Shown: positions 6,231 to 58,429, numbered from the stretch's first letter. The stretch: 64,000 nt of DNA from Microbotryum violaceum (GCA_001244265.2 LN717261.1:1317591-1381590); one strand, 5' to 3'. Numbers and translations: made by a program. Notes: generated by a model not told the origin, from the sequence alone.

Positions 6231-6734
6231 GATGGATGACAAAGCTCAGCCCAATTCTCTGAACCTGGAATAATACACTGGCTTCCTTCACTTGTCTGTT
6301 TCATCCACTGCCAGAGGCAAGAGTGTTACAGAGAAGTTCTAGATATCCGAGTGGTGGTATTGCGGTGGTAACAACCCAGACCCGGTAGTAACTACGCTGC
6401 ACGTACAGAAGAAACCCGGAGGCCGGGGGAATAACCATCCAGGCAGATATTACCCATGTCAAAGTTAATACCCGGCTGGGGGTATTACCGCGCGCCTGGT
6501 TATTACCCCTCAACTGGGTAATACCCAGCTGGGGGTATTACCGCGCCCCCGGGTATTCCCCGTCGGCTGGGTATTACCCGCGGAGATGGGTAATACCCGT
6601 CAGAGAGTTAATGCCCGACGTGGGGTTAATACCGCGCGCCTGGGTATTACCCGTCAGCTGGGTATTACCCAGGCGCGCTCGGGACAATACCCAGGTGAGA
6701 CCTGGGTATTACCGGAATTAACCGACCCTCAGTG
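6231..6734. mobile_element. Terminus of a CACTA/CMC-type element with subterminal GGGTATTACCC/GGGTAATACCC repeat array
   Basis: Ends in CTCAGTG (reverse complement CACTGAG) at 6728-6734. Many GGGTA(T/A)TACCC motifs at 6440-6715; the same motif and end occur at 49225-49390. Confidence 0.7.
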
Positions 6735-6796
6735 AGGACAACGGCAGGAAACGACGCATCGCGCAAATCGGTGAACGGAGCTGGCACGACACATAC

Positions 6797-7491
6797 CGGT
6801 CAGTCCGTCGTACAGGACCACCTCGCAAGCATACACGTGCTGACAGTGGCATGGTGAAGGAACGTCCAAGTTGTCCTTGTCGCTGTTCGAAACGAGCGGC
6901 AATACTGCCAATTGGTGCTTATGCGTAAATCAAGATAGAGACCCAAAGGGCAGCGCGCTGACTCTCGCGCTGCTCGTGCTCGAGTGTGATAAACTTGAAG
7001 TAACCTTCTTGCTTAGCGGCAACCGGCGGATCGGAGACGCGGGGAGTTGGTAAAATCTTCCGTGCGAGTTCCTGGTGAGTTGAGCGTTGTAAGTCGGGGT
7101 CGGGTGGGATCCAGTGCTCCATGGAAAGATCCATTCCCCCTAGGTCTTCGTACTCGGCCTGCTGCGCAAGAGGGAAGTCTCTGAGATAATCCTCGCTAAA
7201 ATCATTGTGTGAGAAGTTCAGGTCATTGGCGAAGACTGAGCTCGAGGCGACAGGGACGCATTGGTTCGTGCTCGTTTCGACGTTTGACGTTGCAGATGTG
7301 GTGGGAGTGGCATCCATATCTGTCTTGGCCTTCCTCGGCCTCTTACGTCCTCCTTTATCGACGATCGTACCTCCGAAAGTGACAAGGCACAGCGACATGG
7401 TGGCGTATTGATTCGGGCAATCGGGATGGTCGAGGTAGTCCGAAGGCTTGATCCGCGGAAAGCGTGGTTTGAGTCGCGAGGGGCGGCCCAT
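6797..7491 (-). pseudogene. N-terminal half of a CxC1-type KDZ transposase gene
   Basis: MGRPSRLKPRF...QRAALW, then after a frameshift PCHCQHVYACEVVLYDGLT-G|GTATGT donor. Lies just inside the 268-bp terminal repeat. Confidence 0.65.
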
Positions 7492-7728
7492 GGTGACTGA
7501 GCGGAATGAATACGAGAACACAAGTGTAGTAGCTCAGCAGAAACGAGCTCCGGGTGGGACAAGTCTGCGACGATCGCGGTAGTACGTCTGCAGGAAGCAG
7601 CGGCCGCCTGCATGCACGCGCGACAGATTTCTTACGTGCCACTTTGACGTATTCCTCATCTCACAACGCGTCAAGCACGTGACTGGACACCCGCCCATGA
7701 GCATGAGTCCCGGCCTCAGGCGCTCAGA

Positions 7729-7996
7729 GTCTAAACATTTAGAAAATTACGCGCGGTTACTGATTCAACTCCGAACCAATCTTTGCTTCTTGTTATCTGC
7801 TGGAACTATTCATGTCGTCATATGATCAAGGTAGTGGTCTAAACGGACTTGGAAGAGGTAGACGGGCCTGTCCCGGCGCCGAGTTGCTCCCGTTGGTAGC
7901 GGTGTGCCACCGGGCCCAGTTCGCCTGTTTGCATAGGTTTTTCCGGCCGCGCGGCGGCGCTACTAAGACTGGTTACTTTTTAACCTGCCTGAGGTG
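7729..7996. repeat. 268-bp terminal repeat of the KDZ element (left TIR, now flipped)
   Basis: Closely matches 57450-57717. Flanked by GGGAAGTT, the reverse complement of AACTTCCC that flanks the other copy. Confidence 0.85.
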
Positions 7997-8208
7997 GGGA
8001 AGTTGGCATTGGCCCACGGGAAGTTAGCAGAAGTCACATGTCGCCCGCGGCGCGACAATCACATCGAGGTCTTTCTCAGGCCCCGACCTGTCCTGATCTA
8101 TGCCCAACGTCCGCACTTCTTCGGCCTTCGAGCCAACACAACATATTTTGCCACGTCACCGCAAGACTCGCCATCAATTGTTGATCCCATCCGATGCCGT
8201 TCAGCAAC

Positions 8209-9459
8209 ATCAGCAAAATGGGCAAGCGCGCTTAAGCTCGACGACGTTTTGTTAAGCGTCCTTATCGCTTTTCGGCTTTTGCTGCAAGAGTTTGACGCTG
8301 AGGACTTTAGCGCGCGCGACTTCAACACCCGCAGCCGTAAGCCGTGCCCGCACGCAGGCCTCTCGCTGTAAGCCGTGCCCGCACGCAGGCCTCCCGCAGT
8401 AAGCCGTGCTCGCACGCCTGCCTCGAGCATAAGCCTTGGCCCGTAAGCCGCACCCGCGCAGGAATCTCCCCAAGCACGCTCCCGCCGCACTGGGTCAGTT
8501 CCGCACTGCCTGCTGTTGCCGTACCAGTATTCGCTGCGTACCTTTGCCACCTCCTGCCAAGGTTGGTTGCCGTCCTAGATCTCTTCCTGCCCTCACGCCT
8601 TCTGGCTGACAGGTTCCGAGCATCTCACAGGACCTCCCCAGCGATACAAACACGCAACTGCCTCCCAGTCTTCTGCCCTGCCAGACTACGACGGACAGCT
8701 GCCCACTGCGTACGCCTCTTCTTCTCAACCTTCCTTGTTGGATTGTTGACTGACTGTTCATACCCTGTATGCAGCCGTTTCTGCCCTACACCTGCCAGTG
8801 TAGCCGCACCTTATTTTCCTGAGTACCGAGTCACGCTCCCGGAGCTAAGGTACATCACTCCCCCGCATCAGGCTCTACCTTTTGGTACTCCTGCTCACAA
8901 CTGTCCTTGTTGGGCATGTTGGCTTACTTGGCTACCTTCCGCTACAGACTACACTTGCCACCCAACGTGCCAGCGTTCAGGGTCGGTTCCCTCCTTTCAA
9001 GTGTGTCACGCTGTCCAAGCAAAGGTATGCCAAGCCTCCCAGTCTTTGCAGTATTTATGAGTACTAATAGGATCCACGCTTTCCAAGCAAAGTGTCCTGT
9101 TTTTGAGCTCCTCCCGCCCACCCTTCTAAAAAAATAAAATAAAATAAAAAAGTCCTTGCTGGTATCTTTTCTTTCCTTTTTATTATCTCTCTTCTGATCT
9201 CTGGGTCTCTCGTCTTGTGGGGACTTTCTTTCAACCCATTCCGTTTGTTACGGGATGCCGGGTTTCATGCCTGATACTGCAACTCGACTCAAATCCCGCT
9301 ACCTAGCCGCGCTTCTACGAAAGAGTCGAAGCGCGCTTAAGCGCCTCTAAGCGGTGCGCGCCCTTAAGCCGCTGCGTAAGCTCGCGTTAAGCGGGACGAC
9401 GCCGTTAACCCCACTGCGAATCCTTAAGCGAGGGTCTCGCGCGTGCCCATTTTGCTGAT
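8209..9459. mobile_element. Non-autonomous TIR element (ATCAGCAAAATGG family), 1251 bp
   Basis: Ends are ATCAGCAAAATGGGCA...TGCCCATTTTGCTGAT, with subterminal (C/G)TTAAGC repeats. Same ends as 24820-25158. Confidence 0.8.
8330..8465. repeat. Degenerate tandem repeat of about 31 bp (GTAAGCCGTGCCCGCACGCAGGCCTC...)
   Basis: About four units visible inside the TIR element. Confidence 0.8.
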
Positions 9460-10886
9460 TTGAAAGTCGATCGAAACGATTTGGCGCGAACAGCACGCCT
9501 GGGCGAGACACTAAACTAGCACACTTTATACTTTACGTCGACAAAGACACGGCGTTGGGCTGTAATTCAATGCTCATCAACCTACATGAGCCATCGATCG
9601 AGCAAGACCGCCATTAATCTAGCATCACGAGCGCACCGACGTCAGGCTCCGAAGAACTATTCAGAGTCATACGTCGCTTTCTGCCTTGTAAGTCGGTCGA
9701 AGAATGCAAAGACTTTGGATTGGTCACGCCGAACGCCAAAGATTGAAGTGTTGGGGTGTGGTTCGTGATCTGGGCGAGATTCAGTGAGCTCGCTCAGAGC
9801 CTCGACCATGATCGCTTCTGGCCATGGTATGAAAAGTGTGCAGTGCACACGGCCTCGGTCCCAACAAATCAAGTAGCAGGACCTACCGAAGCTTGCTTCT
9901 GTGGGGTAATGATTCAACTGATTTGTTTTTCTTGTTGAAAATCACCGGAGGCTCGTGTGCAACACAGGCTAGGTGACCTAAGCGATGCGGCAGCAGCGGA
10001 GGACTCGACGCAACGGAGAAAGCCGGCGGGCATCTGCGACAGGGGTCTTCAGTCTCGGTGCCGAATATAGGCCACAAGACTAGCTGAAAATTATGTATCT
10101 CATCTCTCTTTATTCGCTCGGTGGCTCGAATCTAGCAATCTTCGCTGGCTGCTACAAATAATGCGCCATGTTTGAGGGCTGGAGCATTAGAAGCGATCAT
10201 CGACGAGTCGCAGTTCACGGGTTTTGAGCATTTCGCAAATAATTAAGCCTGCTCAACGCGGACCATCGCTTCTATTGCTATAGCCTATAAGGATGACGCA
10301 TCATCTTGGCATCCAGCGGAGATTCTCCCGCTTTAGCTTCTGCATAATGCGGCGTGACTTGTGCACTGCAGTGCGCATAACTTATTTCATTTAAACCATC
10401 CGAGCTATTAATAGTCTCGGTTCTCGCACCGCTATCGGCTCCACCTCGGCGGGATGTTCGCCCGTCGAGTCATCGGCATCGGTGTGAGATCGAGACTGAG
10501 TTAGTAGTATTACCTGTCGCAGTTCTCACCAGGCATAGCTATTTAAATAAAGCACAATGTCGTAGGGAGGTAATCGACGATTATGGTCAGTCGCTCGGGG
10601 TCATTCAAACGCCGCAAGCGCTCAAATGACCGACTACAAGTCTTCAGGCGTCTAGTCGGAGACCCTAGCGGCAACTGAAAATCTTGCAAATACCTCATAC
10701 AGGCAGAACTTAAGGTCATTTCGTCCGCCGTCAGCTCCGGGCGGAGGACCGGCAAGGGGATTGAGACTCGGAAAAAGCATAGCCGAGCGATGGCTTTAGC
10801 GCATGATCGGAATGAAGCTGCGATGCGAATTACATTCGATACAAAACGGAGAATTACAAGATAGAAGGGTGGGCAGGGTAGGAGCA

Positions 10887-11908
10887 TCAGGCCATGAGAT
10901 CGAAATCGTCCAGCTCGTCCTGTCAAAGAGTGAATCGCGCAGGGTCAGACAAGACGAAAAGGGAAGGATGAAAAGCAGGCCAGCGGAACTGCTGGCGAGA
11001 CTGACGTTGTATTTCTGGATATGTCGCTTGAGCTTGGATGTATCGACCCAAGTGACAAAGTCCTCCATGTTGCGAGTGACGAGGAACGCCGGATCAGTGA
11101 TCGGGTCTGGCCCTACTCGGACGTGGCCTTGCTCGATGTAGGTCACGGCCTGGACAGCGTCGCAGACGAGGAAAGTCAGCAGATAAGTCAGCAGATACGA
11201 AAAGAAAAACCCACTGACCAGCTTGACGGTCTCGGCCATTTTGAGCCTGACCAAGACAACGGCCAATCGCCTGCGACACAAAGCTCCGACGGTGACTTTG
11301 CCCTCCTTCTTGCCCTGGCCGTCGACCTCCTTGACCTTGCCATCGAAGCCCTTGACGACGGGTGCGTCCGATCCTTCGATGTCGGACATCTTGGCGCCTC
11401 GGTCGAGTATGCCCATGTCGTACAGCTTGGAGAGAAGCAAGTCCTCGTACTTGGCTCGGAACGGATCCGCGGGCGGCAGGCGGGAGAGCAGATAGGAGAG
11501 ACGACAAACTTGGCCGCAGATCTTGTTGTAGCAATGATAATCATCACTTTTGAGAGATCGTTGGGATTGGCGATCAGATTATAGGGCCCAAGACGGATGA
11601 GAAGAGGGCATGCACTGCACGACTGGGAAGCAGCGACACTGACCGGTTCTGCACGTGATAGCGCCTCATCACTTTGACTTCTCGCATGCCCGCATCCGAC
11701 TTCCACGACAGGAAGTCGACCTATGGTGATGCATGCCGCCCACCGGTAGAGGTAGGTTCGGAGAGAAGGTGATCGAGGGAAGGTGGAGTAGGCGAGGCAA
11801 CAGGAGGCGAGTCAGCCTCGAGTTTGACAGCGGTGCTACAGCGCATGATTTTGATTAGTGACATACCTTCTTGAGGAGTTTGGCCTCATGATGCTTGAGT
11901 TGACGCAT
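10887..11908 (-). CDS. IMP3: U3 small nucleolar ribonucleoprotein Imp3 (5 exons, 207 aa)
   Basis: Exons 11908-11867, 11720-11644, 11546-11219, 11149-11006 and 10919-10887 splice in frame (624 nt). Protein reads [21 protein letters not shown]...[54 protein letters not shown]. Confidence 0.95.
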
Positions 11909-12557
11909 GGTGGGCCGGCGACGGTGGTGATGAACGTAGAACAAACGAGCAGACGAGCCAGTCGGAGCCGTGCTGGCGATCGCCGCGGCTGCGAAGCAGT
12001 GCGAAGCGACAGCGCGCGTCATCCCGCGCCGCCGAATCACGTGACTTCTTCTTGTTCGGCGCCGCACGGTCATCAGTGCAGTGCCCGCGCCCCGGCGAAG
12101 ACATTTGAATGCAGCCAAGTTGCAATGGTAGAATAAGAACCCGGGAGCGAAAGCGTGCTGGCGAACCCGTGGAATTTTTGATTCATATTGGATTGCTAAA
12201 TCAGGATAGACTGCACCAACTCAAGGAACGCCGGATAATCGATTATTTCACACTAGGTCGTATCAAGCTTGTAGCAAAATTTGGCCATTTGGGGGATCGG
12301 AGGCTTGTACTCAGCCTCATCACGTGCCAAGTCGATCTCGGCAGCAACAGTACACCAGCACCACAGTGTGTCGCCTATTACACCTACCCCAGAAAGACAG
12401 GATTTCCAACAGCTCCTACACCCAGCAAACATCGCACAGTCATCTTACACCTGCATCGACTTCCGCTCGCGCGCTTCACTCAACATCTTCCGCGTCCACT
12501 CACAAGCTCCGGCGGACCACCTGCCTTCCCTCTCCGACATTTGCGCCAGTACGAACC

Positions 12558-15207
12558 ATGTACTCAGCACTGGATATTCAGGGCATGAAGCGGGCCGAGC
12601 TGCAGGCTCTATGCAAGGTGGGTCGCCTAGCATTTTCCTATGCCCATCTCGGCCGAGCTGACTGACCGGCAGTGACCTCATCGCGCGAATCGGACGACTT
12701 TAGACGAACAAGCTCAAAGCGAATGGCAAAACGGAGATATTGGTGAAGATGCTACTCGATCACTTCAGTCTGTAAGCTACCGGCATGTAGTCGCTCCTTG
12801 TAAGCCTTGTGCCGAGCTGACTGGACAACGTCTTTGGTGGCTCGCCTCAGAGCATCTTCCAGTGCGCTTGAAACAGCACCTTTGACTGCAAGAACAGCGG
12901 TCAGGAAACCGCTGCACGCTCCAGGATCCAGAAAAACCAAAGCGCCAAACACAATCAAGAAGAAACCCATACCGGTTGCTTCCACATTCCTGCCCACGCC
13001 TCAGCGGCCTTCCGGAGGCGCCGACGACGACAATGACAACGAGATGCGACTCCAAACCCCGGTCGCGATCCGAGCGAAAAAAGTGTCGGCGCACAACTCC
13101 TTGTTGAAACGCGCACTCGAGTCATCGTTCACTCCGGCTCTAGCCACGAGGCCTAGAGCCGCCATTCAGGCTCAGGGTGGGTCAGAAACTGCGCTCGACC
13201 CTGCCCGAGCACTGAGGACTGCACACTGACGCTTTGCATCCTATGCCAACAGCTTCATTTTCCACTTCACCAGCAACGAAGAGAATCATCAAAGTTTTGC
13301 TCGCCACAGTTGACACTCTTAAAGCCGAACTCGCGACGACTCGATCTTCGTTAACTCAGCTCGAATCCACCACCAACATCGTCTCAGCACCTTCGACACC
13401 TCCTCTGAAACGGGCGGAAGTGCTTGCCCTCGTGAATGAGCGTATCGTACAGCATCGTGCTCAAGTCAATTCTTCGGTTGAACAACGATTCGTCTCTGTG
13501 AGCGCTCACCTTGCCGAGTTGAGCAAGGCGGTCGAGCTGGCCACCACTCGGGAAGAGCGGGAGTCCATCATCCAACTACGAGATACACTGGACGAGGAGC
13601 TGGAGGGTGCTTTCGAAACACTGCGGTCGAATTTGACGGGTCAAGTCGGGGGGACGACTGCGCCGATGTCTTCAATCTCTCCCGCGCGTGCGTCTTCGGC
13701 ACCGGTTCAGGGTCCCGCATTCGCTTCGCCTACCCTATTGAACTCCTTTCCCCCTTCATCACCAGCACCGTTGATGACTCCGGATATACCCTCTGCGGCA
13801 TCAGAAAGAGCTCCCGCTTCGGCTCCCGTAAGCCCCGCGGTCCTCGGCCTCGCATCCACCCCTGCTCCGAACCCGGCCAGTCCGGCCATGTCAGACGGTG
13901 CTCCCCCTACGACAACTCTGGCTTCCTTTTTGAGCCCCATTGCATCTCCTCGAAGGACTCCCCAAACTCGAAACTCGCATAAGCCAAGCCCCTTAGATAT
14001 CGCCCCGACCACCGTGATCGCCGAAGGGATCGAGCCCGCGCTTGCTTTATCGCTCCACATGCTCTCCCACGTCTCGCCGTCCAAGAACAAATCCATCTCG
14101 CCTCGTCGAGGAGCATCCTCACCTCAGGCGTCTCCCCGGAGGTCCCTCGCTTCGGCATCGACACCTGCGACAGCGATGGTTGTCGCTATGAGTCCTGCAC
14201 GCTCGATCGTTAGGTCCATCGGCAAGCGGCCAAGGCGGGAGCATGATATTGGCGACGTTTTTGTCGATGGCATGGAAGTTCCGGGACGGGCGACCCCTTC
14301 CAGGGCTATGGGAGATATTGGAGCGAGGGAAATCAAGGGCTTGAGTGGTGGACGCGCAAGAAAGAGAATGCGGATCAGCCCCGGTGCCGAGAGCCAAGTG
14401 GAACAAGCGCCGCAAGCCGCCGCAGAGTATGCATCCGAGTCAGAGGAGGATGAGGAGAAGGTGGTGCAAGTGATCCTTACTTCTGACCCTGGAACGTTCG
14501 GTGATGAGGAACTGCTCATTGAAGAGGAGGGCGAGGAGGCTGTCCACCAGGCCGAAGAGACGACTCCACCCGCACTGTTGGATACCCCACGAGAATTTTT
14601 CATCTCGACCAAATCAGGTGATGACTCGTTCGTACAGCCTGTGACACCGTCGTCATCGCGCAACCCCTTTAGGCTCGATGGTGCTCCGTCTCTCTTCGTT
14701 TCGCCGTTGACATCCCGACAAATTCCTCTTGGCCAATCGCCAGCAACGAAGATGGCCTCGCCCTTCTGCGTCAAATCACCTGCTCGATCGCACATTGCAC
14801 GGTCTCTGCATGAAACGCCTCGATGCACTCCCATCATGACCTCGGCAGCTCGCATCTTTGCCGATCCTTCGAATCGGTGCGTTTCGTCGATCGCTGTCCC
14901 TCCGACGCCGTTGGCGAGCAAAACGCTTTATGGAACCGAGCGGATCGAGAATGAAGAGGAGAGGAGATTTGGAGACGTCGTTGTCAGTCCGGGAGGTGGG
15001 ATGTCTTCCCCCATTATTATGGTCAATCCCTTTGGGAATGGAAGGGGTGCGCAGGGCAAAACGTTCGAATGGACCGGGTTGAGGTCGCCAAACAGGACGT
15101 CGACAAGGGAGTTGCCCGACTCCTTTTCCGGGAGGCCTGCCAACACGACTGCGGTGATGTTCTTGTTGTCGATCCATGACTCCATATCGATTGCGCCAAC
15201 CGAGTGA
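12558..15207 (+). CDS. Hypothetical protein: N-terminal SAP/HeH-like motif, coiled coil and long Ser/Pro-rich region; 3' end probably altered
   Basis: MKRAELQALCK|TNKLKANGKTEILVKML spans an intron. Three GT-AG introns, then a long exon within ORF 13234..15207. Divergent from IMP3. Confidence 0.65.
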
Positions 15208-17931
15208 ATGACAACAATGACGTTCGAACACACACTGGCGACCTTGGAGATAAGCTGATTGCCGTTCTGCCACAACTCGAGGTTGTTACGATCGCCTTGA
15301 TTACTATCGACAGTGAGGTAAACTTCTCCCGAGTCCGAAGCAACAAAGACAAGGTACCTGTCCACCGATCGTGCGAGAGGCGGGATCGCGTTTGTAGCGT
15401 TGTTGTCGAGCACAGAGGAGATGGAAGGTTTGGGGTTCGTCTGACCGAGCTTGTAGCGAATGGTTGACAGGGGATTGACAAGATACGGGAAATTCACAGT
15501 TCCTGCGGGCCGGCGGTGGGAAGGATAAAGACTTTGTCAGAGATTATGATCACCAAAGACTCGCTGTAGCTAAACAAAGCACTCACCACTGCCCCAACCC
15601 ATAGCAAATGTGCCATCAAGTCCGCTGCGGTCCGGAAATTCATTAGGGCCATTCTTGGCAGGTCCAGCGCTGAGGCGAAGCGCGAAGAGGTCCGTCAGTA
15701 GGCGAGCCCTCGAGACAAGCATCGCGCACAGCTAGCACTCACTTGGCACCAAAGATGCCTACGCTTTTGAGATGGCTAGCCTTGAGCGGCAGGGCGTTGG
15801 CAATATTCTTGAGCAAGATGTTCGAGGCAGCACCGATCTCTCGGACGAGCTTGTTGTGGTCCGACGAGACGTTGACATGCGAGTTGATGAGACAACAATT
15901 ACTATCGTAGGTGTCCAAGGTGCTGCAAATTGGACAAAACACTCAGAGGGAGGAAGGTTACTAGCCGTTCAGTAAATCAGGCTCACAATGCGGAAAAATT
16001 GATGTCCGGGTAGTCCTTCGAGTCCTGTCCCAACTGGTAGTAAGCGGCCATGGCTGCGCAGGGAACAAAACCGGGAGAGGGCGTAAGTACAGCTTGTTGA
16101 CGGTCCTCCCTTGATTCAATAAACGCAGGGTTTGTGAAAATACTTCGAGTGACGGCGTCCTTGACTCGAGCGAGGGGTAGGGATCCGTTGTTGACGGCTT
16201 GACGAGCTCGGCACCCCAGTAGCTAGTGTTCAATTTGGCGGGATTCTGCTGGTTGTCCAGCCCCTCGGTGTAGGATCGGAAGGCTGCAGAAGAAATAGGT
16301 CTTCAGTAGGTATAAGAAGCTTTTGTTACCCGCGGAAGGATATCTACGGACTTGGCATCAACATGTCCAGACACGCAAGCGCACTGCTGACGCCGCTTGT
16401 CTGTGCAGCCCAATCCGAGACGACAAAGCAATGGAACACCAGGTCTTGCTTGGCGAGCTTGTTCATCAGGTACGAGTTTTCGCAAGCGTGCATCTGATTG
16501 ATACGGTTATACGAGCACATGATCGATCCTACACCGGCCCGGATTGATTCGGAGAAAGGGTGATTCTGAGGGCACATCGATGAATCAGAAAAGGACACCG
16601 GTCAGCTTTGACTATTTGAAGCGCTCGAGAGACTTGCAGTGAGGCAGACTCATGTATACTTCGTGCATGACTCGATCATCGATAGTGCTAGATGAGGTAA
16701 TAGCCCCCAATCCTCCTCGGTAGTGCTCTTGCTCGTTGGCAATATAATGCTTTGCACACGCGATCACACCGGTGCTCTGGATGCCCTTGATTGTCATCGC
16801 GGCACCGAATCCGGCCAGGTAGGGATCGCCACCGAAGTCTTCCCAGTTGCGACCAGCCTCGGGGGCACGTGCAAGGTTCATCATAGGGGAGAGTGCGAAG
16901 TTGACCCCCTGCGATAAGAAAGCGGGTGCAAAGTTCCAAGTATCAGCACCATCCGCACTTGCCGCCGATGGAGAGGGAGGGATCTAGAAAAGTGGGTGGA
17001 CACTCACTTTCCCTCGGAATTCACTTCCCATCGCCGCTCCTCGCTTATACATCAAATCTTTATCTGCGAAGCCCAAACAGCTGGACGTCAGTCTCGGGCA
17101 CTATCATGGTGGGTTAAAATCGTAACACGGCTCACCCCAAGTCGCAGCAACGTTGATGCTAAAGTAAGAGGGGATGCGACCCTGTCAGTCGCACGATCAC
17201 ATTCGAACACACTAGGGTTAGTGAGACATTGTGCCAACTCACGCGGCAGGGAATGCTGACACGCCCTCGGTGGCTCAAACGTCGAGCGGCGAATCTTGAA
17301 AGCAAATTCTGCGTGTGCCGACCGTGCAGCCTTTGTCAACCAAGTGCTCCGAGCTTCTTCCTTTGAGCAATGAAGCCATTTCACCCCATAAAGTTGAGTC
17401 GAGTGACATTGCCGGTCCGGCCAATACAGCGCCCGTGAGAGCCCTGGCCGGTCGTAAGGTTGACGAGCTCTTCGAGTTTAACTGGTTAACAAAGGTGCGA
17501 GCTTTGCGGATCGCTGAGCTCCACTCTGCCAAAGGCTGGGCGTCGATTTCGGTGTAGGGACATCTGCATGAGAAACGACTTGTTGTCAGTTTTCAGCTAG
17601 AATCCCGACAAATTACCCTCGACGCTCAAACGCTCGGACCCACATATTTGCGAAATGCTGGAATGCGAGAGGCGCGTAGTCGCACGAGTCGTCAATTGCG
17701 GAACCCGAGCACGAGCCGACGAACCTACACGCCGGACGTACTATTGACCATAGCCAGCGGGGGCTGCCTCAGGTTTGCGGTTCTGTACGGATCTCCTGAC
17801 GAGCCGGCGGGTCTCGAAGCGAGAGGCAGAGGACGAGTGGTCACCGCAATCATTACCGACAGCAATGGGAGACGCGCGGCCAGTGGAGTGCATGTGATCG
17901 CAAGGAGACCAAACACCACGGAGGCTCTCAT
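15075..17931 (-). pseudogene. Glycoside hydrolase family 3 beta-glucosidase pseudogene, 3'-truncated
   Basis: Signal-peptide-like start, QDSPL, GRNWEDFGGDPYL, ACAKHYIANEQEH, IMCSYNRIN, VVSDW, LLKN and GNSLVDVLFGDLNP motifs. Frameshift near 17475 and in-frame TGA near 17276; similarity stops at about 15075. Confidence 0.92.
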
Positions 17932-18252
17932 GATTGCGGAATCAGAATCGGAGTTGTAGGTGGTGTGGACGTGGTGTAGGGGAAGCAGGAAGCAAAAGGG
18001 GATCAAGACCGGGCCATTACTTAATCCATCAACCAGAGAAACCAATGCTGTAACCGAAACAGGGTGGGTACCTAGGTCCGGATGCCGCCAGGGCTAAAGG
18101 CGAATACACAAAGTGTACCCTTTTTAGTTGCTCTAGCGCGATCCATAGCGCGCCGCGGAGTTTTTGGTTAGCTCGGGGCCTCCACACAACCTCCCCGCCC
18201 CCGCATACGGCCCCCGCGCAAGCCCTGCAACTTTGGGCCCGTACCCATGTCG

Positions 18253-46400: not shown

Positions 46401-46776
46401 TCGTAATCGCCTTCAGGGATCTGGGGAAGCTTGGGGCTGATGTTCATACTGAATACTTCGCTCTCGTAGGGCAGCGATGGTGAGTTTGGTGCATCGGTGT
46501 GCGAAATATTACTCGAGACGCTGCCATAGGCTTGTGTGTCGTTTGAAAGCGCCGAGTCATTGAGCTGAGCGCCCATCGAAGAACCGACGAACGCCTTTCG
46601 CGACACGATTCGCTCTGCGGATTGGGTATATTTTTGCGGCGAGCGGGTTGCGAACCAACTGGGTGTAGGTCGTGGGGGCTGGAATAATTGAGACTGGGGA
46701 CCAGGCGGTGCTAGAAGCATCGATGGCTGCCGCGGTACCTCGAGAATGGCAGCCTCTTCGGTAGCGCGGGGTCCAT
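43500..46776 (-). pseudogene. CACTA/EnSpm Tnp2 (Transposase_21-type) transposase, fragmented
   Basis: CCVKTCVAFTG..CPVC, DLFDG, FTDGIQLF..CWPIMMIDYNLPPEIRY..IIPGPKGPKDIDSFL, GDGPALSK..GFKG..PCRVC, DFMH and HAVLHIADFIEWHGP..WCFAMEQ. Confidence 0.9.
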
Positions 46777-47068
46777 TAGGTTGTCAAGCGTGATGGCGGT
46801 AGAAGGTCGCTTTTGACACTGAAGCCCCTTTGCACCAGGAACAAGGGCATGGGCGAGAGGTTGTGTTCCCCGCCATGGCGGAGCGAACGAGCGGTGCACG
46901 TTTACCACCGTTGAGGGTCCGGAAAAAGACTTTGCAAAAATTGTGGCGCAGTCGGCGCAGTCGTGCAGTTTGCGCGCGCGTCTTCGTTTCTCTCTTTCCC
47001 TGCTTCCGCCCACGTGTTCAGTCCTTCTCCCACCCACCATTCATCCACTTCCACACGGGAGCGCCGCA

Positions 47069-49040
47069 ATGGCAGGATCTGCATCACAGAAGGACAAAGA
47101 GAACCAAAGACGGAATGGGAAGGGCACTGGTGAGCTCAGCATGCAGTACTTGTTCTGATTCAAGGATTTGCTTCGCCAGGTTCGGGCTCAGGTTTGGGCT
47201 CAAGCGCTCAGGCCTCAGGAGGCCTCAAGCTTGGGCCGAGTCTCGTTCGGGCTAAGTCAGCCACATTTTCGCTGACGTGTGCCGCATTGGTCCACTGCAG
47301 CCAGAAAATACATTGATGCCGACGGTATGTACGCACAAAAAGACAAGGGCAATATGGGCTTGCGTGATTATACTTGCAAGCGCGGGCAAATTGACAAAAT
47401 CTATTACAATTGGGTTCGCGTAAGTGCCGGCAAGTCCAGCGAGCAGAGCCCCACTACCGACTAGCTCTGACGTCCCTGTGTCACTCGTAACCTTCCTCGA
47501 CCCAGTTGGTGGTGCGGGACGCACTAGTAGTGGCAGGGATCAGGACACCTACCCCGGTCCAGCTGTATGGGCCGCTTGCGGAGATCAACCAGGAGTGGTC
47601 CCCAACCACAATGTTGTGAGAAATTAGTCAAGGGTCAGCGGTCCAGAGGGACTTGTGGCATTGGGAAGTTGGCGCGCGCATGGCGCGGCGCCGGATGGAG
47701 GCAGATGGCGGTGTGGCGTATTGATTGGACTCAGAGGTGGCTTGCACGCGGATACTATCTAAGGCTCTGGTCTCGTTCACTCTCTCCTTCTTCTTTAACA
47801 CACACTCGATATATATCTCGCCCATTTGCTACAGCAAATCTTCATTCATTCATTGGTACTCCAAGTCCAAATCCACAACACACGAGCGCCCAAGTTTCAG
47901 CCCTGTGTTTTTTTTTTTAGTTAGCTTTTTTCTCTTTTATTTTTACTCTTTATTTTTATTCCAGTTTTTTCCCCAGGCCAAGCTGGGCAAAGATAAAATA
48001 CTAAAAAACTGGAATAAAAATAAAAAAGGGGCGCACAACCTGCCCGAAAACTACGATCTCAAGGACGCCTTCAGACTCATCTCTGCCAAAACTAGCACAA
48101 ACACAGTCTTGTGGGGGAATCTCTCCCCTTTGAAGCAACGAGAAATCGTCAAGTATGTAAGTAACACGAAGCCCCCCCCCGGTTGTCACCTTGTTGTGCA
48201 CTCGCTTGCGTGCTGACCAATTACTCCTCCATTGGCACTTGGTCAGATTCGCGAACGGGCTGGTTTCCTTGCGGCCACATCCGGCGACTGGCTCTATGAA
48301 GAACTCGTCATCGATGTCTTGGCAAATATTCGGTCCGCCTGGAAATTAGCGTACAATCGCGAAGTGTGCCGGCTTGCGGGAATCAAAGGTCAGCTCTCCA
48401 AAGCAGACATAGCGACACTTCGCAGCAGGCATGGTGAAGGTCCCAGTCGGAAAGTTAGCCCCTTCTTCTCAACCAGATCAGACTGGATGGTATGCACTGA
48501 TGAGACCGTGATGACTCCTTCAGAGCCAAGACGGGGTCTATTCGGCTTCAGATACAGGCACAAGCGACCTCGAAGAGGAAGAAGTGCTGGCAACTAGGAA
48601 CAGGACCCTAGTGCCCAAGAAGCGAGGAGCGCGCCAAGGAGCAGGATCGCCACAATTGTTGCAGGAGACTCAACAAACAAGCCCCCACGTGGGTTCAAGC
48701 GGCCAACGTTCGACTCCTGCAGCCAGCGGTGTCAGAGGCCCGGGCCCGCCAAGAAACAAGAAGAAGACCGAACACAATCCTAACAGAAGCCAACAGACCA
48801 ACCCAAAGAGAGACCTTGGCAACGGTCGAGCTGAAGAAGAAGAAAACGAGGATCAGGGACAGGATGAAGAAGAAGTTGAGGAATTGGAACGGTCTCCAAG
48901 GACTTGAGGAAGCGGAGCACGTGCGGCAGCTGCGGATGATTTGTATGCCAACAATCCAAATTATCCGGCTACGGGTCAAAGATGGTAACGGAGGTAGACA
49001 CTTGCTAGATAAATACTACAACATCTGGCATGCAATATAA
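47069..49040 (+). pseudogene. Spliced accessory gene of the CACTA element, unknown function, probably disrupted
   Basis: Exon-like segments (LWGNLSPLKQREIVK | IRERAGFLAATSGDWLYEELVIDVLANIR) separated by GT-AG introns, with an acidic tail. Confidence 0.45.
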
Positions 49041-49442
49041 AATGGCTGCATTAACATTAGTAATATGAGCGCGAGTATTAGTAATTTATGATACAGACCC
49101 TAATGAGTAAGCTAATGCCAATTGAGCTCGCACTAGTATTTAATGATACAGAACCTAATGAGCAAGCTAATGTGAATTAAGCTCGATCACGCTCCCAAAA
49201 AGAGCCCCTATTGAGACTTTTTGGATGGTATTACCCATTAAAATTGGAAATACCTGAACCAAAGGGAATACCGTCTAATACCCATCTGAAGGGGTAATAT
49301 GCTTGGGTATTACCCCTTCAGATGGGTAATACCGCAGCCCAGGCAATACCCATTCAGATGGGTATTCCCCGCCAAAAACGTCGCTCAGTGGCGCGCCTGG
49401 TATCACTGACACATGAAACCCCCTCTGCGCCTTGCTGTTCAG

Positions 49443-52400
49443 TCTATTCCAAGCAAGTCACGTTCTGCGCTTCCAATCCGCCCTGTGTTGCGGAAGCTGT
49501 ACGCCTGGCTCAACTTGGGTTTATAGCATTGACCGCTGTCAACCCAGGATCAGCGTTCTCCTTCCGATCCGCCTAGAAAACTCGCGTTGGCGTAATGCCC
49601 CTTACACCCTCACTGGCCACGCTGCAGGCTTCGAAGACTATTTTGCGGACAACGGGTGGTCGAAACCAGAGCATTATCCTGGACACCCATATGTGAGCAT
49701 TTGTTATCGGCTTTTTGCCATGGATTCTACCCGGACTCATTTGCTGCCCGGTTGTGGAGCTCAGGATAAAGAGCTGAGGAAGCAATGGCAGCGGGCGATT
49801 GACGAGTTTTGCGCCATCGAAGCATCTGAGCACGACGTTGGCGACTTTCTCTTGGGCACCGCCGACGCGCTCGCCAACAAATGCCCAGCATGCTTCGGGC
49901 CGAAACGGCTCAACCGACCCCATCACACCCTCCAACTGGATTATATGATCGCGCTCGACGGCAACTTCCAGCAAACCCGAGAAAATAATGCGACATACGA
50001 CGTCCAGGGAATAGTGCCGAGCTTGTTTCTGTCTGATAAAGCCGTCCTGGACATGAAAGCACTCGTCAAGAATACAGCGCGGCCAACGAAGAAGGTGAGG
50101 AGCGTGATGTATTTGCGTTCTACCTTGAATACTGAGTAATATCGCTCCGGCCCCGTCGGAAGGCGTGCACAGAGTCGTGGAAGGCTGCTGACGGGGGCGC
50201 TGGTCGAGTCTCGTCACGCAAGATCGATACAGGACTTGTCGCCGGCGTGTGCCGCCATGATATCGCCCTAAAAATGGTGAATCTTGAGAAGACCGGCGAA
50301 AAGTGAGTGTATTGAGCTTATGTTCCTCTACTCCAACTTGCATTTTTACTTTCACTGCTCATGCTCATGCCTGCCTGCGCTCCAATCACCTAGGCTGTAC
50401 TTCGCTTTAGCCATTGTCAAGCACATCTCGGACCATCTCCCCCAGATGCTAGGATTGGAGTTTTGTACGACATCGCTTGTAGTTTCAAGCACCACATTGA
50501 GAAGGTTTGCATTGACCACCTCGGCTCGGGCCCCTCCGATATGTCGTTGCTGATCATATGGGCTTTGTGTTTCAACCTTTTCAGAGGCATCTTCTGCCTG
50601 AGCTGTTTGAGCGACCCGAGTTTGCCACAAGTGTCTTCCATGCATACGCCCATACCTGGGGTTGCCAGGTTGACTACAACCCCCGTCTTATCCCGAAGTT
50701 TGGATTCACTGATGGAGAAGGTTGTGAGCGACTATGGAGCGCGCTGCGCTCCCTCATCCCCATCAATCGCCCATCAAATAAGTCCCACCGCCTCGTCAAT
50801 TTGGCGGTCCGCACGCAGGCAGTGAATGACGCGAACGTCTCAAGGCTTGGTCAGTGCTCTGCAGTCGCCGCTTCGTCTTTCGCCGTATTGACTCTTTGCA
50901 ACAACTAGGGTCCTGGTTCACCCGCCGGCTTCGCTCAGCCAAGGCTCGGAGCACTGCTGCTCGAAAGGAACTTGAAGCCGTTATCGCCCACGATGCCACC
51001 TGGTCCGAGGAGGCGCTCCGCGTCGCTTGGCAAGACCAGCGACGAGCGCAAGCGTCGAAAACGGCTGCGCAGGAAGCTGAGGAAGATCGTTTGAGGGAAA
51101 GCAAGCTTTATAAACTTGCTGAGGAACTTTACAGGATTGACTGCATCATTTACGTGCTTGGTGCTAACTACTGGAGCTTGAACTTGTCCTTCGTTCTCAC
51201 TGACTCATCATCTTGCTGAGCAGTGACGAGTCTGAACCAGAAGCGCTTGTGGGGCTGAATTCGAAGCACGATCGTCTTGCAAGGGAGATCGATCAAGCAG
51301 CAATTGTCCAACTGTAAAGAAGTGGGACCGGCATCTCGTCCACAGGTTGGCCTTAATTCTCTTACTTAATTTTCCCTGTTCCTGATTGCGATGACGTGCC
51401 TATTTGCTTCACAGAGCTTCGTCACTTGTGCCAGTGTTCTGTTGCGCTGCGCAAGCTTCATCGAGAAGTGATTGCCTACAAAACTAGCCGTGAAATATTG
51501 CTGTCGACGCGTCGCGGCAGGGGCGGGTCAACACTTGGCCAGAGAGAGGCCAACAAAGCTCGCAAAACGGAAGTCAAGACTCACTCTGGCGCTGAAAAGG
51601 CACGTAATGCATACAACAAGGCTGTCAACGCGTTTCGAACGGCAGGCGGATCATCACCATCGCACGTCCTCAACAATCTTCCATCAGTCGGTAGCCTAGC
51701 ATCGATTCTTGATCTTGAAGACACAGATCTCTTCTGGCAAGACGGGTTTTTCCCGCATGTTGACGCTGCTTGGGCCACCGATCCGTGGGTTAAGCGGGGC
51801 ATCGTTGCTGTGCGTGACCTGGATCGAGCTGCGGAGGAGTTCGCTCGGATTGGCGCCGAGGTGCGACAAACCCTTGCTTGGCTCGAAGACGAGCACGACC
51901 TCATCTCTAGTCGCCAAGCACTTTGGCTAAGCGCGACAGGTCAGTTGTCAGTCGAAAGTTACTCCACTGGTCTAGATGCTGATACCTTTTTTGATAACAT
52001 AAATAGATTCCGCTCCAACGATTTATGACCATGATCGTGTTGAACGCGCATTTGGCAGTACCGTCTACGCAACGATCCGGGACCGTGCCCTCGTCATTCT
52101 GGACGCTCGGATGAGGTCTCTTCAAAAGCGCGAACGAGACTGGTTCCGCGATAGCACTTTCTTACTGCTGTGGTACACGACCAGAGGACCAGCGGATACG
52201 CACGAACCAGTCCCTCGAGCTCTGAAGCGTCTCACCCCGCAACTGCTGTTGAACCCGGGCAACGTCTCCAATACGACAACAGCTACTGGAGCTGGCGCGC
52301 GTAGTGTTGCGTCTCGGGAGGACGCATCGGGCGCCTATGCAGCGCCGTCCGAGTCGTTCCGGACCACCGATGACGATCGTCTGCTCGCGCGGCGCATCAC

Positions 52401-52566
52401 GGAGCAGCTGGATACTGACATGAATGTAGAAGGCGCAAAGTCTTTGCATGATCTGACGGTCCAGATGCTGGAGTCGCAAGAGGGCATGCTATACGATTCG
52501 GACAGCTCTGATAATCTGGTTCCCGACGAGGAGCGTTCTTTGTCGGACTCTGACTCGGAAGGATGA
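49443..52566 (+). pseudogene. Kyakuja-Dileera-Zisupton (KDZ) transposase, CxC1 type, central and C-terminal part
   Basis: VTFC..VRLAQLGFI..AFS, CPACFG, IALDGNFQQ, YDIACSF, FHAYAHTWGCQVDYNPR and FGFTDGEGCERLWS motifs, helical C-terminus; introns and frameshifts. Confidence 0.92.
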
Positions 52567-54525: not shown

Positions 54526-56419
54526 TCAGTATTCTTGTTCTGCGGAAGCAGCAGAGGTATCATTACGGTGAACATCATGCAGGATACGCTCGCGGCTTTG
54601 GTGCACTACAGGCACAATCCTTAGCGCACTAAGTCCAGTGACTAAGTCATCTTGCTTCGCCCAGCGGCATCCGCTCGTTGTATCTTCCAACTCAGCCCTA
54701 CACTTCATGTCCGTCCCAGCGCGCTGGCTCATTTCGGCGTCGAGACCTGCTGCCCTAAGCTCTAAGAGTGCTCGTCGGAATCGGGGCGGCTCACCGCGCT
54801 GCCATCTTGGTCGTTGGCAGGGATAGCTGCACCATCTTCATCTTCTGCATCCGCTAGTACCTCTTTCGTTAGCCTGAATCTCAACTCTCCTGCACGCAGC
54901 AGGGGAATGATACGATCTAAGTCGGCTCCCGACATTTTTGGCTTGCCCATGGGGCTGGCGAAGTCCGTCTCCAAGTTGGGGCTCGGGCCGCATTCAACTA
55001 CGATACTGGCCTGTTGCATGAGCGCGGTTGGGTCGTACACCAACCTGGGAGGTTTGTTCTTGTTTTCGTGCCCTTGGTTCTTGGTACGTCGCTTCACGGC
55101 ATCATCTGCACCGAGAAGAAGACTCATCGTTAGTAGTCAACAAGTGAGCAGCAACTGAAATCTCGATTAGAACATAGTCCACACAGAAAAGTTTTTTCAC
55201 GATCGTGCTGTACCACGAGGCTTTTGTTGCAAGATTCGCTTCCGTCAGTGGCGCCTCCCGAACTGCGTGACAGCGTAATGGACATCAATCAGCAAGTGAC
55301 AATAGTCTGTCGGCGCGTGCACCTACTGACCAGCTGCTTCCAATTCGGCCTTTTTCTCCTCCAAGAACGCTCTAACGGTAACGCAATCCGCGAAGTCGGA
55401 GAGCAGCTGTCTTGAACCCAAATTATCGCCCCAGTCTTGTCGATAGGCAAAGGCCAAACCACCGGGGCTCGCGACCATGAAACGCTCCTTATTAAGTTCA
55501 GGAAGATCAGAAGAGACCACAGCAAACAATTGGAGTCCATATTTTTGCGCATATGAAGTGCTCTGGGTTGGTTTTGAGGGTGTTATGATCCTTTCAGTTA
55601 GTTTACTGTGAGCAGTATCAAATTGAGCTTGGACTCACCATGGTTTCCAACGCGGCCTGCATGCATCGGCGCGCTTTCTTAATGGCTTCGTGACTCATCG
55701 GTTTGTTTCGGGCGATCTTGATGGAGGATGAACTTTCGGTCGCTTGCGTTACTTGCGTCGCTTCCTCACGCTCCAAGGCAAGCGCCGCGTCAAACCTCGT
55801 CATCAACTCTGCGTCATCCTTTATGTTGTTCCAATATGGCTTTGCGAGCTTAACCCTCTTCACCAAATTGGTCGGCACTAAAGCGGACCAACCCAGCCCG
55901 TTAGTTCAACAACAGCGTAGTGCAATGCTATGCTAGAATTTAGCACCAGGTAGTCAAGAGCTGTGCCTACCTTCCAATCCATCTTGAAATGCCAGCGATT
56001 CGAAGTACTTGCTCTGCACAAAGTCATTCCAACAAGTGGGAGAGCCAAGGCGAGTCACGGGCGCAACAATGCTCCTCAAATAATCGAGTCGAATATTGTG
56101 TCGGATACAATACTCGAGCTCTTCGTCAAGTCTTCTCTGGGCCCATTGCTCGTGCATAAGTCGTTCGGATTTACGACAGTTGCGCTTAGGGATAGCCTTG
56201 CATTGTTCGTGGAGGCTAAGGGCCCATCGGCCTCTTCGCTGGCGTCAAAGGCGAAACTGCGGTCGGCACGGTGGCAACAGGGACTTGGACGGGGGCGAAC
56301 TGTTGATCCGCGGCGGAAAGTGGTGATGCATGCATTGTCGGGGTGCTTCCATCTACTGATGAGAAATTCGGCGAGGATTGCAGGACGCCCGACGATGTAT
56401 TGGCTTCGTCCATTGGCAA
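54526..56419 (-). CDS. Multi-exon passenger gene inside the KDZ element, unknown function (integrity uncertain)
   Basis: Consecutive minus-strand ORFs 55954-56157, 55618-55878, 55323-55529, 54762-55127 and 54526-54732 are separated by intron-like gaps; contains a helical WNDF motif. Confidence 0.5.
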
Positions 56420-57449
56420 TTGAAGGGGGTCAGGCAGCAGGCGATGCAGGTGATGCAGGCGATTGGCGGCGGAATCGGCGGGACAGGAGGGTCGATTTGA
56501 TGGGTACCCTGTGCTAGTTGTGCTGCCTAGGACAGGGAGGTGGTATGGGAAGGCGGACGCTTGGCTACCCGACTCGAGCGAATAAATTGGATAATCGATG
56601 TTTGCGAACGCGGGAGCGTCAAGCGGTCGGCTGGGCGGCGCAGGACTTGGATGGTACGCATCATATTACTCGCTAGACGAAATCGTATTGGAAGAGAACA
56701 TCGTACAGGCAGAGCTTGGAAGGCGAACAGGGAAAGGTCAGAATGACACGGTGCTGCATTAAACCAATCAAACCGCGCGTCGACGACCGCGCAGCCGCAC
56801 TTCCACCACGCACCCAGAGACTTGTTTGTGAATGATTATCCAGGAGGGAAGGAGCCCGCAATGTTCCGAGGCCACGCGATGAATGCATAGTTAAGACGTG
56901 GATGTCAGCAGGCCCTCAGAAGCTCGTTCTCTGGTAAAGCGGGGACGACAATCGCCGGACATACACGTGGGGCTTGTCGAGCGCCGAAGCGTGAAAACTT
57001 GGTATGAGTTGGCGATGTGAAAGGATCACAAGATCAATGGAGATCAACGAGAGACATGACGTGTATGCGGTTCGGCGATTGAGGACGAGGATATTCGCGG
57101 TGAGACCAATGGGTCTCGTGTTGAATGTACGGGCGAGATGGGGCCTAAAAACAACAGCTGTCAACGTATCAACAACGCACGACACGCGTCGATTCCGTCA
57201 GGTTCGGACGGCGCGCAACCTCGCGCAACCCGCGTCAGATCACGTGTTGCACTGGGCCAGACATACCACGGCTTCAGCAGTGCTGAGGCGTTAATGGATA
57301 TACCTGGACTTCAACAAGCTTTTCTATAAGCTCTACAAGCTTCCCCCGTCAATGACTTACGTTATAGGGCCAAGCCGGAAAATCATTTCCGGATCAATTG
57401 TAATGACTCTAAACCTTAAGCTTTGCGAGCTTGTTCCCGCGTGCTTCTC

Positions 57450-57717
57450 GTCTAAACATTTAGAAAATTACGTGCGGTTATTGATTCAACTCGAAACCAA
57501 TCTTTGCTTCTTGTTATCTGCTGGAACTACTCATGTCGTCATATGATCAAGTTAGTGGTCTAAACGGACTTGGAAGAGGTAGACGGGCCTGTCCCGGCGC
57601 CGAGTTGCTCTCGTCGGTAGCGGTGTGCCACCGGGCCCAGGTCGCCTATTTGCATAGATTTTTCCGGCCGCGCGGCGGCGCTACTAAGACTGGTTACTTT
57701 TTAGCCTGCCTGAGGTG
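57450..57717. repeat. 268-bp terminal repeat of the KDZ element (right TIR)
   Basis: Matches 7729-7996 and is followed by AACTTCCC. Confidence 0.85.
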
Positions 57718-58429
57718 AACTTCCCCCACCTTTCCGCCAACTTCCCCCACGCCTCTGCTAACTTTGCCAACTTCATGCCTAATCGGGCCGCAAGCGGGCC
57801 TCAAGCGGGCGCGCGCGCCTGAAGTTGGCGAAGTTGGCACTCCCTGGACACCGCCAGCGCCCCGAAGAGGGCCGAAGTGTTAAGTTGTGACCAGAGGTCA
57901 CTGGTGATTCGTGAGGCGGCACGAGCCGGATCGTTTCGAGGAGGTTGCAAGGCAGGACGGCGTTGCAGTGGACTCCCAGGTGGAGAAGTCGCGAGGCGAG
58001 CGGACGCGCTCTGGCGGGCGGCCGCAGCGTAGCCGAGCGATCTGTTCTCTACGGAATCTCAGCAGTCTGATTGGTGAGATGAAACGATAGAGAAGAGGGA
58101 AAGAGGCGTGAGAGTGCGCGAGTCTGGCAAGGTTCTGGCAAGGGCGCGCGCAAAGAGGACCCCTGAAAGCCCAGCCAGAGGCGCATGCGGAAAAACGCCC
58201 TTTTTTGGCCTTTTTGTCAAAGTTTTTTACCCTATTTTGGCCCCAAAATGTCAAAATTTCGCATGCGCCTCGGAAATATTATCAAAATGTGTTCTACATG
58301 CTCCAAAAATCGCTCAAAAGTCCTCGAAAACGCGTTCCGAGCGTTTGCGGGCGCGCCGCGGCCTATCGAAAGTGGCTTGCGGCGCGCGTCACTTCGGCTG
58401 GTGTTGCGCGTGGCTCCAGGCTTCAAACA

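Follow-up and report, generated by a model that had tools for sequence, protein, structure and literature searches.

Can two pieces of a transposon that lie 41 kb apart in opposite orientation be the halves of a single element, and how would they have come to be separated? This question is raised by a stretch of 64,000 nucleotides (nt) from Microbotryum violaceum (GCA_001244265.2 LN717261.1:1317591-1381590), hereafter the window, to whose coordinates all positions refer. The window is eukaryotic DNA of a Microbotryum anther-smut fungus, rich in transposable elements (TEs), and the proteins closest to it are those of M. silenes-dioicae (96-99% identical) and M. saponariae (93%). Our analysis indicates that the two pieces are probably the remains of one dead two-gene KDZ transposon, which was hit by a CACTA element and then split into two oppositely oriented halves.

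Intact copies were sought through protein homologues and through contigs of public runs. The reference proteins were three intact KDZ transposases of M. saponariae (P0003, of 1104 amino acids (aa), P0004 and P0048) and the 1221-aa CACTA transposase P0007 of M. silenes-dioicae, the latter for the CACTA/EnSpm element inserted in the KDZ intron, which we call element X. Related genomes were compared by means of Logan contigs from four related runs (X1, X4, X7 and X19), at a likeness of at least 88% over the window stretch 5601-10600; the results given for these contigs hold among the pieces listed, next to which there are 587 further pieces, and contigs are incapable of proving absence.

Results

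Terminal repeats and boundaries of the KDZ element

Repeat comparison identified a direct repeat of 268 nt at positions 7729-7996 and 57450-57717, of which the window holds two copies only, with 12 differences between them (95.5% identity). Both copies terminate in ...CCTGAGGTG, and the eight bases that follow are GGGAAGTT on the left (7997-8004) and AACTTCCC on the right (57718-57725), which are exact reverse complements of each other (8 of 8 positions). When the left piece is flipped, the two repeats therefore become inverted termini, namely a 5' terminal inverted repeat (TIR) that lies on the minus strand in the window and a 3' TIR on the plus strand, surrounded by a direct 8-bp target site duplication (TSD) of AACTTCCC. 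The right TSD copy doubles as the opening unit of a 21-bp array (57718-57764), and a 5' leader (7492-7728) lies between the 5' TIR and the ATG. The two parts of the element, of 1262 and 8327 bp, give a rebuilt transposon of 9,589 bp.

The same repeat appears in the related runs as a separate contig, bounded at 7729 and at 7991 (X1) or 7995 (X4). Its depth was compared with that of the KDZ body, and the values obtained were 155.6 versus 102.8 in X1, 121.7 versus about 55 in X4 and 24.6 versus 9-12 in X7, corresponding to ratios of 1.5-2.2, with a ratio of 1.1 in X19 (7.12 versus 6.21). As each element has two TIRs, a ratio of about 2 is expected. Since the repeat has a contig of its own with those bounds and a depth near the expected one, it is not an independent dispersed repeat. 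At six of the 12 positions at which the TIRs differ, the run contigs carry the letter of the right TIR; at the other six, none among the rows listed, with 76 rows beyond these, departs from the left TIR. Judged from this sequence comparison, the pattern suggests some six private changes in each TIR, that is, a similar decay of both.

The split transposase gene

The break between the two pieces runs through the transposase gene. On the minus strand, exon 1 (6797-7491; codons 1-232 and the first base of a split codon) is followed by a 62-nt 5' part of an intron (6735-6796), which begins with GT at 6796-6795. On the plus strand, a 52-nt 3' part of the intron (49391-49442), closed by the AG at 49441-49442, leads into the remaining exons (49443-52560; codons 232-1103), which contain the rest of the CxC1 domain and the KDZ catalytic domain. 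Specifically, the minus-strand exon ends in ...YDGLT and a G at 6797, while the plus-strand exon begins at 49443 with TC-YSKQVTFC; the junction codon G/TC encodes valine, the residue present at that position in the intact proteins, and both P0003 and P0048 are continuous over the split point (...VVLYDGLT-V-YSKQVTFC...).

The first open reading frame (ORF) of the left piece, of 190 aa (6922-7491, minus strand), was searched among longer proteins and matched 4 of 502 candidates at E<=0.001. Two of these four, both from M. saponariae, are full-length and contain PF18802 (CxC1) as well as PF18758 (KDZ), with 93% identity over 96% of the query, and P0003, P0004 and P0048 show 93% identity over exon 1. 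In a tblastn alignment, P0003 falls into two parts, residues 1-232 at 7491-6798 (minus strand) and residues 232-1103 at 49439-52560 (plus strand), and P0048 maps over both pieces in the same way. The CxC1 domain of P0003 (residues 213-300, 43.8 bits) spans the split at residue 232. In the window this domain is cut by the split: taken by itself, the exon piece 49439-49567 reaches 24.3 bits (E 3.5e-5), short of the 26.9-bit cut-off, and the 36-aa left piece alone gives no CxC1 match. The KDZ catalytic domain (PF18758) was detected in the window ORF 50516-50905 (E 2.4e-19, 70.3 bits versus a cut-off of 26.6) and at residues 382-595 of the intact homologue P0003 (E 1.3e-50), where the CxC-type cluster lies N-terminal to it.

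This copy of the transposase is dead on both sides. Exon 1 carries two 1-bp deletions, near 6901 and 6944, and other copies hold an extra letter after each of these positions; the right half carries a frameshift near 49567 and at least two in-frame stop codons. An internal intron inside exon 1 was also considered and rejected, the stretch in question being coding sequence with the two 1-bp deletions. Over 5601-10600, most differences from the run contigs pair an A or T in the window with a G or C in the run; in X1, where 69 positions differ, 17 are A>G and 18 are T>C. C-to-T hypermutation of repeats has been reported for Microbotryum, and the A/T-biased differences fit such a process.

The inserted CACTA element

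Both intron halves abut an end of element X. On the right, the 5' part of X (43498-49390, minus strand) encodes transposase residues 1-1010 (46876-43498) and carries subterminal repeats (49227-49369) as well as the terminus, which reads CTCAGTG on the plus strand (49384-49390). On the left, a 3' end piece (6229-6734, plus strand) comprises the last 14 transposase codons with the stop codon (6229-6273), GGTATTACC repeats (6481-6713) and CTCAGTG (6728-6734). The CTCAGTG ends hence fall at 6734 and 49390, both X termini being CACTGAG/CTCAGTG, and all 16 GGTATTACC-type motifs of the window lie within about 290 bp of these two termini (10 at 6481-6713 and six at 49227-49369). The X transposase is 96% identical to P0007, which carries PF02992 and whose residues 1-1010 align to 46876-43498 on the minus strand; a Transposase_21 (tnp2) domain was found in the ORF 45081-45533 on the same strand (E 2e-14). 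With this transposase, and with CAC...GTG termini accompanied by subterminal repeats, X is a genuine CACTA/EnSpm element.

The other end of the X transposase is found on the left piece, where 6229-6270 (plus strand) encodes QMDDKAQPNSLNLE followed by a stop codon, identical to the C-terminus of P0007 at 10 of 14 residues (E 0.087, in a deliberately permissive search). X1, X4 and X7 have contigs whose match to the window starts at 6231; immediately ahead of it, their letters encode REESREYIFDR, the P0007 residues that precede those 14. Combined, the two X pieces provide both termini and about 84% of the transposase. As they are complementary, oppositely oriented and non-overlapping, a single flip of the left piece puts both KDZ and X back in order and orientation, and this double restoration is the strongest argument that the two halves derive from one KDZ::X composite. 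In addition, contigs of other KDZ copies have their match to the window bounded at 6735 in X19 (record 11, 4333 bp) and at 6737 in X7 (record 26, 2472 bp), and from there they run for 3.5 and 2.1 kb, respectively, unlike the window. Because the KDZ copies of X19 and X7 diverge there, the X insertion is particular to the copy in the window, and 6734/6735 is a real boundary.

These results bear out the core of a preliminary description of the window, which had proposed that the 268-bp repeats become TIRs with an 8-bp duplication after a flip, that the exons at 6797 and 49443 join in phase, that both intron halves abut CTCAGTG ends with the same subterminal repeats, and that a CACTA element had entered the KDZ intron. 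It had also named two findings that would speak against such a structure, namely a 268-bp repeat dispersed on its own and intact copies with an unrelated first exon; the contig bounds and depth of the repeat are not those of the former, and the N-terminus of P0003 and P0048 maps to exon 1.

The complementarity of the pieces also bears on the possibility that the halves come from two different KDZ (or KDZ::X) copies, each inserted in the same kind of 21-bp array and each truncated. The KDZ family is multi-copy in M. saponariae, with a 17-member cluster that includes 190-aa models covering exon 1 only; the flank is itself a repeat, at about five times the single-copy depth in X1, and AACTTCCC recurs in the flanks, all of which would suit such an origin. 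Such an origin would nevertheless require that one and the same X had broken two copies at an identical nucleotide of their intron, that the X pieces were complementary and not overlapping, that the 8-bp TSDs agreed in the expected orientation, and that both TIRs had undergone comparable private decay. Moreover, the other KDZ copies seen in the four runs have no X at the site (X7 record 26 and X19 record 11). We regard an origin from two copies as very improbable.

The second gene of the KDZ family

The 3' half of the element contains a second gene (54765-56701, minus strand), convergent with the transposase and belonging to a family of about 515-540 aa; residues 1-515 of P0030 map to 56701-54765 on the minus strand. 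Of the 16 KDZ entries listed for M. saponariae, 13 place a homologue of this gene beside the transposase, the two locus tags being no more than 3 apart (for example Chr5-2g07929/07931, Chr1-3g01630/01629 and Chr9g10640/10641). As these entries pair both genes, the family is a two-gene element, which makes 57717 a sensible outer end. The full ancestral boundaries proposed in the preliminary description are in this way sustained by the bounds of the TIR contig together with the family's second gene in the 3' half.

No Pfam domain was matched in the proteins of the gene 2 family, and only 12 representatives were retrieved at E<=0.001 among 1.84 billion proteins; the neighbours in a protein atlas are unnamed Basidiomycota clusters. 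The AlphaFold model is poor (mean pLDDT 50.6, pTM 0.27). The proteins P0030 and P0033 are disordered over their N-terminal third and helical towards the C-terminus, and they have very few relatives beyond the genus.

Target sites and junctions under scrutiny

Several observations weigh against the derivation of both pieces from one split element, and they concern the TSDs, the missing part of X and the related runs. As regards the KDZ target site, the TSD is a single instance of a locally frequent motif: AACTTCCC occurs seven times in the window on both strands, four of these in the two flanks, with a spacing of 21 bp on each side (8018/7997 on the left, 57718/57739 on the right). Because of this local recurrence, the 8-mer match is weaker evidence than 1 in 65,536. 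Tandem Repeats Finder (TRF) places the start of the 21-bp array exactly at 57718, and it carries the array just 4 bp leftward over the junction of an empty site rebuilt by script. In that empty site, from which the element and one TSD copy were removed, the 21-bp motif spacing is preserved, and the lag-21-bp match score ranks the true junction phase first of 21 phases, narrowly (45 versus 34-44). The continuity of the array over the rebuilt site gives weak support, and the TSD alone is moderate evidence for one split element. The caution voiced earlier, that part of the TSD match could be chance in such an array, is justified as far as the local frequency of the motif goes; the orientation, the repeat motifs shared by the flanks and the double complementarity of KDZ and X make a chance origin very unlikely.

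As regards X, residues 1011-1207 or so of its transposase, about 200 codons, are absent from the window, and X has no 3-bp TSD, the bases at its borders being CCT (the reverse complement of AGG, 6735-6737) and GCG (49391-49393). In the accessible part of one source, EnSpm elements are described as normally generating a 3-bp TSD (PMC12730594). A TSD at shifted boundaries was tried and rejected, since CCT recurs 5 bp into the right flank and this offset match is likely due to chance. A small junctional deletion is possible, and would be the simplest account of the missing TSD.

The absence of this TSD counts against a second explanation as much as against a composite split after a simple insertion, because both predict one. 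Specifically, in reversed-ends (alternative) transposition by the CACTA transposase, the termini of two nearby direct X copies would have inserted in the KDZ intron and inverted the DNA between them, X never having been a simple intron insertion; the duplication predicted is then an inverted 3-bp TSD, and none is present. The topology fits this mechanism, as both junctions read ...CTCAGTG at their border on the plus strand, each against one target half, with the left half inverted. The left X piece spans just 504-506 bp before foreign DNA, so that a separate X copy to the left of the window is conceivable, and inversions of this kind are described, in the accessible parts of the sources, for maize Ac/Ds (PMC1592236; 10.1101/2021.03.08.434479). 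Complementary, non-overlapping X pieces covering most of the transposase are, however, what a single split X predicts, and they would be a coincidence under two copies, while as many later truncations would be needed as in the splitting of one composite. No report of the mechanism for CACTA elements in fungi was found by a search that was not aimed at fungi, which is a weak point against it. On balance we consider reversed-ends transposition unlikely. If true, it would represent a transposase-catalysed chromosomal inversion in a fungus, possibly within a non-recombining mating-type region.

As regards the related runs, no listed contig from X1, X4, X7 or X19 bridges 6734/6735 or 7996/7997. The only KDZ contig seen in the four runs is a paralogous one, 97.4% identical (26 differences in 1013 positions in X1), in which the window's own letters do not occur, yet the unique flank 9621-10600 is 99.8-100% identical in these runs (0-2 differences per 980 bp). 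Finally, neither a reciprocal junction nor an inverted repeat pair at the inferred breakpoints is present in the window.

An error of assembly, in which mis-joined repeats produced a false inversion, would account for part of this: the inferred inner junctions lie in high-copy repeats (a gypsy long terminal repeat (LTR) and a miniature inverted-repeat transposable element (MITE)-like repeat), no listed run contig bridges the key junctions or carries the KDZ letters of the window, and even the best run contains a fraction of just 0.58 of the words sampled from the window. Undoing a false flip should restore X, yet X would still lack about 200 codons, and TE ends foreign to it stand at both inner junctions. 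The junction repeats are short, measuring 136-224 bp, and the KDZ/X and TIR/flank junctions are unique sequence. An assembly error is, of the explanations considered here, the one to which we give the least credit.

Inner junctions and the separation of the halves

The probable descent of both halves from one KDZ::X composite leaves the question of how they were separated, on which the inner junctions are informative. On the right, X stops at codon 1010 against an exact copia LTR terminus (43497/43498). The copia fragment (42200-43497, minus strand), consisting of the start of the LTR and gag, is inserted in X at this codon and is in turn interrupted by a gypsy LTR at 42199/42200; the copia/X junction is a normal nested insertion. 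A gene model of M. silenes-dioicae, P0008 (1070 aa; aligned to 42115-45465), fuses a CACTA transposase to copia gag-pol, and it probably reads through a similar copia-in-CACTA nest, with the junction at a different transposase residue than in the window.

On the left, X begins at about codon 1208, and upstream of it stand the MITE-like repeat and then a gypsy LTR with only 14 bp of gypsy interior. The MITE-like repeat (6095-6230) is a palindrome of 136 bp with perfect 39-bp arms (6095-6133 and 6192-6230). It has no TSD, its depth in X1 is 1702 versus a single-copy value of 44.8 (about 38-fold), and its contigs show loose ends at 6230/6231. In other genomes its flanks vary, and in the window its position coincides exactly with the inner breakpoint of the left X piece. 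It may have taken part in the rearrangement.

A single clean inversion was rejected, as the X residues from about 1011 to 1207 are missing and the inner junctions fail to pair. Where the preliminary description had left open an inversion or several rearrangements, the latter are favoured, and the clean inversion falls because it does not restore X. The missing X codons, a gypsy element and a copia element without TSDs (described below), the unpaired inner junctions and the lack of a reciprocal junction all point to several rearrangements in the region. The signature of ectopic recombination, with inverted homologous copies at both breakpoints and swapped TSDs, was not observed in the window, which contains neither a second copy of the MITE-like repeat nor a reciprocal gypsy fragment on the minus strand; an inverted-repeat partner may lie outside the window or may have been deleted. 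Two inverted long interspersed nuclear element (LINE) fragments, LINE-A (2911-4399) and LINE-B (28983-30624), are 92% identical and were considered as an inversion pair. Re-inversion between them would place all intervening TEs inside X as a nest, and extra events would be needed, since copia-1 and the gypsy element at 37097-42199 have no TSDs.

The anatomy of the locus, the complementarity of its two split elements and their decay can be read directly from the window; from them we infer the order of events and a break-and-rejoin mechanism as follows. The KDZ element would have inserted in a 21-bp repeat array, duplicating AACTTCCC, and X would then have landed antisense in the intron of the KDZ transposase, after codon 232. 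Retrotransposons would subsequently have nested in X, including the copia at X transposase codon 1010. At least one inversion, with loss of some 0.6 kb or more of X, would have followed, one breakpoint falling between codons 1010 and about 1208, in X itself or among the elements nested in it, and the other in the left flank. This would have flipped, relative to the rest, a block made up of the 5' half of KDZ, the 3' end of X and a flank of at least 16 kb in which the IMP3-like and GH3 host genes lie; the block would extend at least over 6231-22500 and at most over 6231-43497. Both halves would finally have decayed through C-to-T-type changes, frameshifts and stop codons. The likeliest mechanisms of the separation would be ectopic recombination or end-joining among local repeats. 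The locus is a fossil that records a rearrangement, and nothing suggests a present function.

Flanks and neighbouring repeats

The left flank, flipped together with the 5' half, extends from 8005 to 22500 (minus strand), the right limit being approximate. It begins with a repeat containing a 21-bp motif array (8005-8205 and 9463-9650), which is interrupted by a non-autonomous TIR insert of 1257 bp (8206-9462) with the ends ...ATCAGCAAA and TTTGCTGAT.... The contigs of all four runs skip this insert, joining 8205 to 9463, and in X1 and X4 the sequence of the insert occurs in many copies, at 100% identity. Two single-copy host genes follow on the minus strand, an S4-domain IMP3/uS4-like gene (10799-11578) and a GH3 glycosidase gene (about 14931-16983).

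Among the retrotransposons, the gypsy element at 4412-6087 contains an integrase-chromodomain-LTR segment followed by the first 14 bp of the gypsy interior. Because interior sequence comes after the LTR, this LTR serves as both a 3' and a 5' LTR, in a tandem gypsy with one common LTR; the second unit is truncated at 6087, as the gypsy copies of other genomes run on there into internal sequence. The gypsy/Ty3 element at 37097-42199 is complete, with LTRs 98% identical and a 3' LTR that cuts the copia fragment, and its flanks have no common TSD (gcggg and acaat). Copia-1 (30625-35393) is full-length, with a 1344-aa ORF and LTRs about 99% identical, and likewise has no TSD (gccat and aaggc). It is flanked by LINE 3' fragments (28983-30624 and 35394-35929) of opposite orientation and overlapping LINE coordinates, and this arrangement is a sign of further rearrangement with a partner outside the window. 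A solo copia LTR (23290-23665), 99% identical to the LTRs of copia-1 and with an internal tandem duplication of 97 bp (23444-23525 and 23541-23622), has an intact 5-bp TSD, CATAA, which served as a positive control for the TSD test.

Discussion

Within the KDZ transposons, Zisupton and Dileera elements are described as making 8-bp TSDs, and Kyakuja elements as making 7-bp TSDs and having no TIRs, in the accessible part of the source (PMC12730594). The rebuilt Microbotryum element, with TIRs that are inverted once the left piece is flipped and an 8-bp TSD that agrees at 8 of 8 positions, does not fit Kyakuja. The canonical Zisupton architecture, according to the available text of another study, consists of CxC4, KDZ and SWIM (10.1101/2024.08.15.608186), and at E<=0.01 the only domains in P0003 are CxC1 and KDZ, SWIM being absent. 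As far as predicted domain content goes, the element therefore resembles the Dileera type more than canonical Zisupton. With canonical Zisupton, the type to which the preliminary description referred, it agrees in the 8-bp TSD and not in the domains.

A close likeness in other fungi is to KDZ1 of Cryptococcus neoformans (with KDZ2 and KDZ3) of the Dileera clade, which the accessible part of the source describes as a large element (about 6-11 kb) with TIRs and TSDs, a transposase with N-terminal CxC1 and KDZ, and extra ORFs without a known domain (10.1101/2024.08.15.608186). Unlike the Cryptococcus elements, which are described there as intact and shown to move, the Microbotryum element is dead, split, and located in Pucciniomycotina. 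It shares this subphylum and the 8-bp TSD with the Zisupton and Dileera elements of rusts, such as Zisupton-1_PGr of Puccinia graminis, but differs from the rust elements that are described as carrying a TET/JBP dioxygenase, as its second gene has no Pfam match (PMC12730594, accessible part). The junctions, in turn, are like the reversed-ends products of maize Ac/Ds in that transposon termini stand at both inversion junctions, each on one target half; they are unlike those products, as far as the accessible text describes them, in that the superfamily is another one, no TSD is present and the terminus-bearing pieces look like one element (PMC1592236).

A full-text literature search, judged by title or abstract, yielded no description of a KDZ element in Microbotryum, and neither CACTA nor Zisupton is named in the main text of a large study of Microbotryum TEs. 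The locus provides the complete anatomy of a Microbotryum KDZ element, of 9.6 kb, with 268-bp TIRs, an 8-bp TSD, a CxC1 and KDZ transposase and a conserved second gene.

Inversions associated with transposons are common in Microbotryum, and the mating-type chromosomes of M. lychnidis-dioicae are reportedly marked by a 'chaos of rearrangements'. The present locus shares with such inversions a dead transposon gene that is cut by an inversion in TE-dense DNA and can be reconstructed from its TSDs. It differs from them in that the window shows no inverted repeat pair with swapped TSDs at the breakpoints, in the additional loss and nesting, and in that two nested elements are split together.

In conclusion, the biology is one of ordinary decay and not of a new mechanism, and the locus is a tidy record of rearrangement in a transposon-rich region. 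It would serve as a dated marker, in which a KDZ insertion was followed by a CACTA insertion, copia nesting and an inversion. If the window lies in a non-recombining mating-type region, such breakpoints could help to order the rearrangements there.

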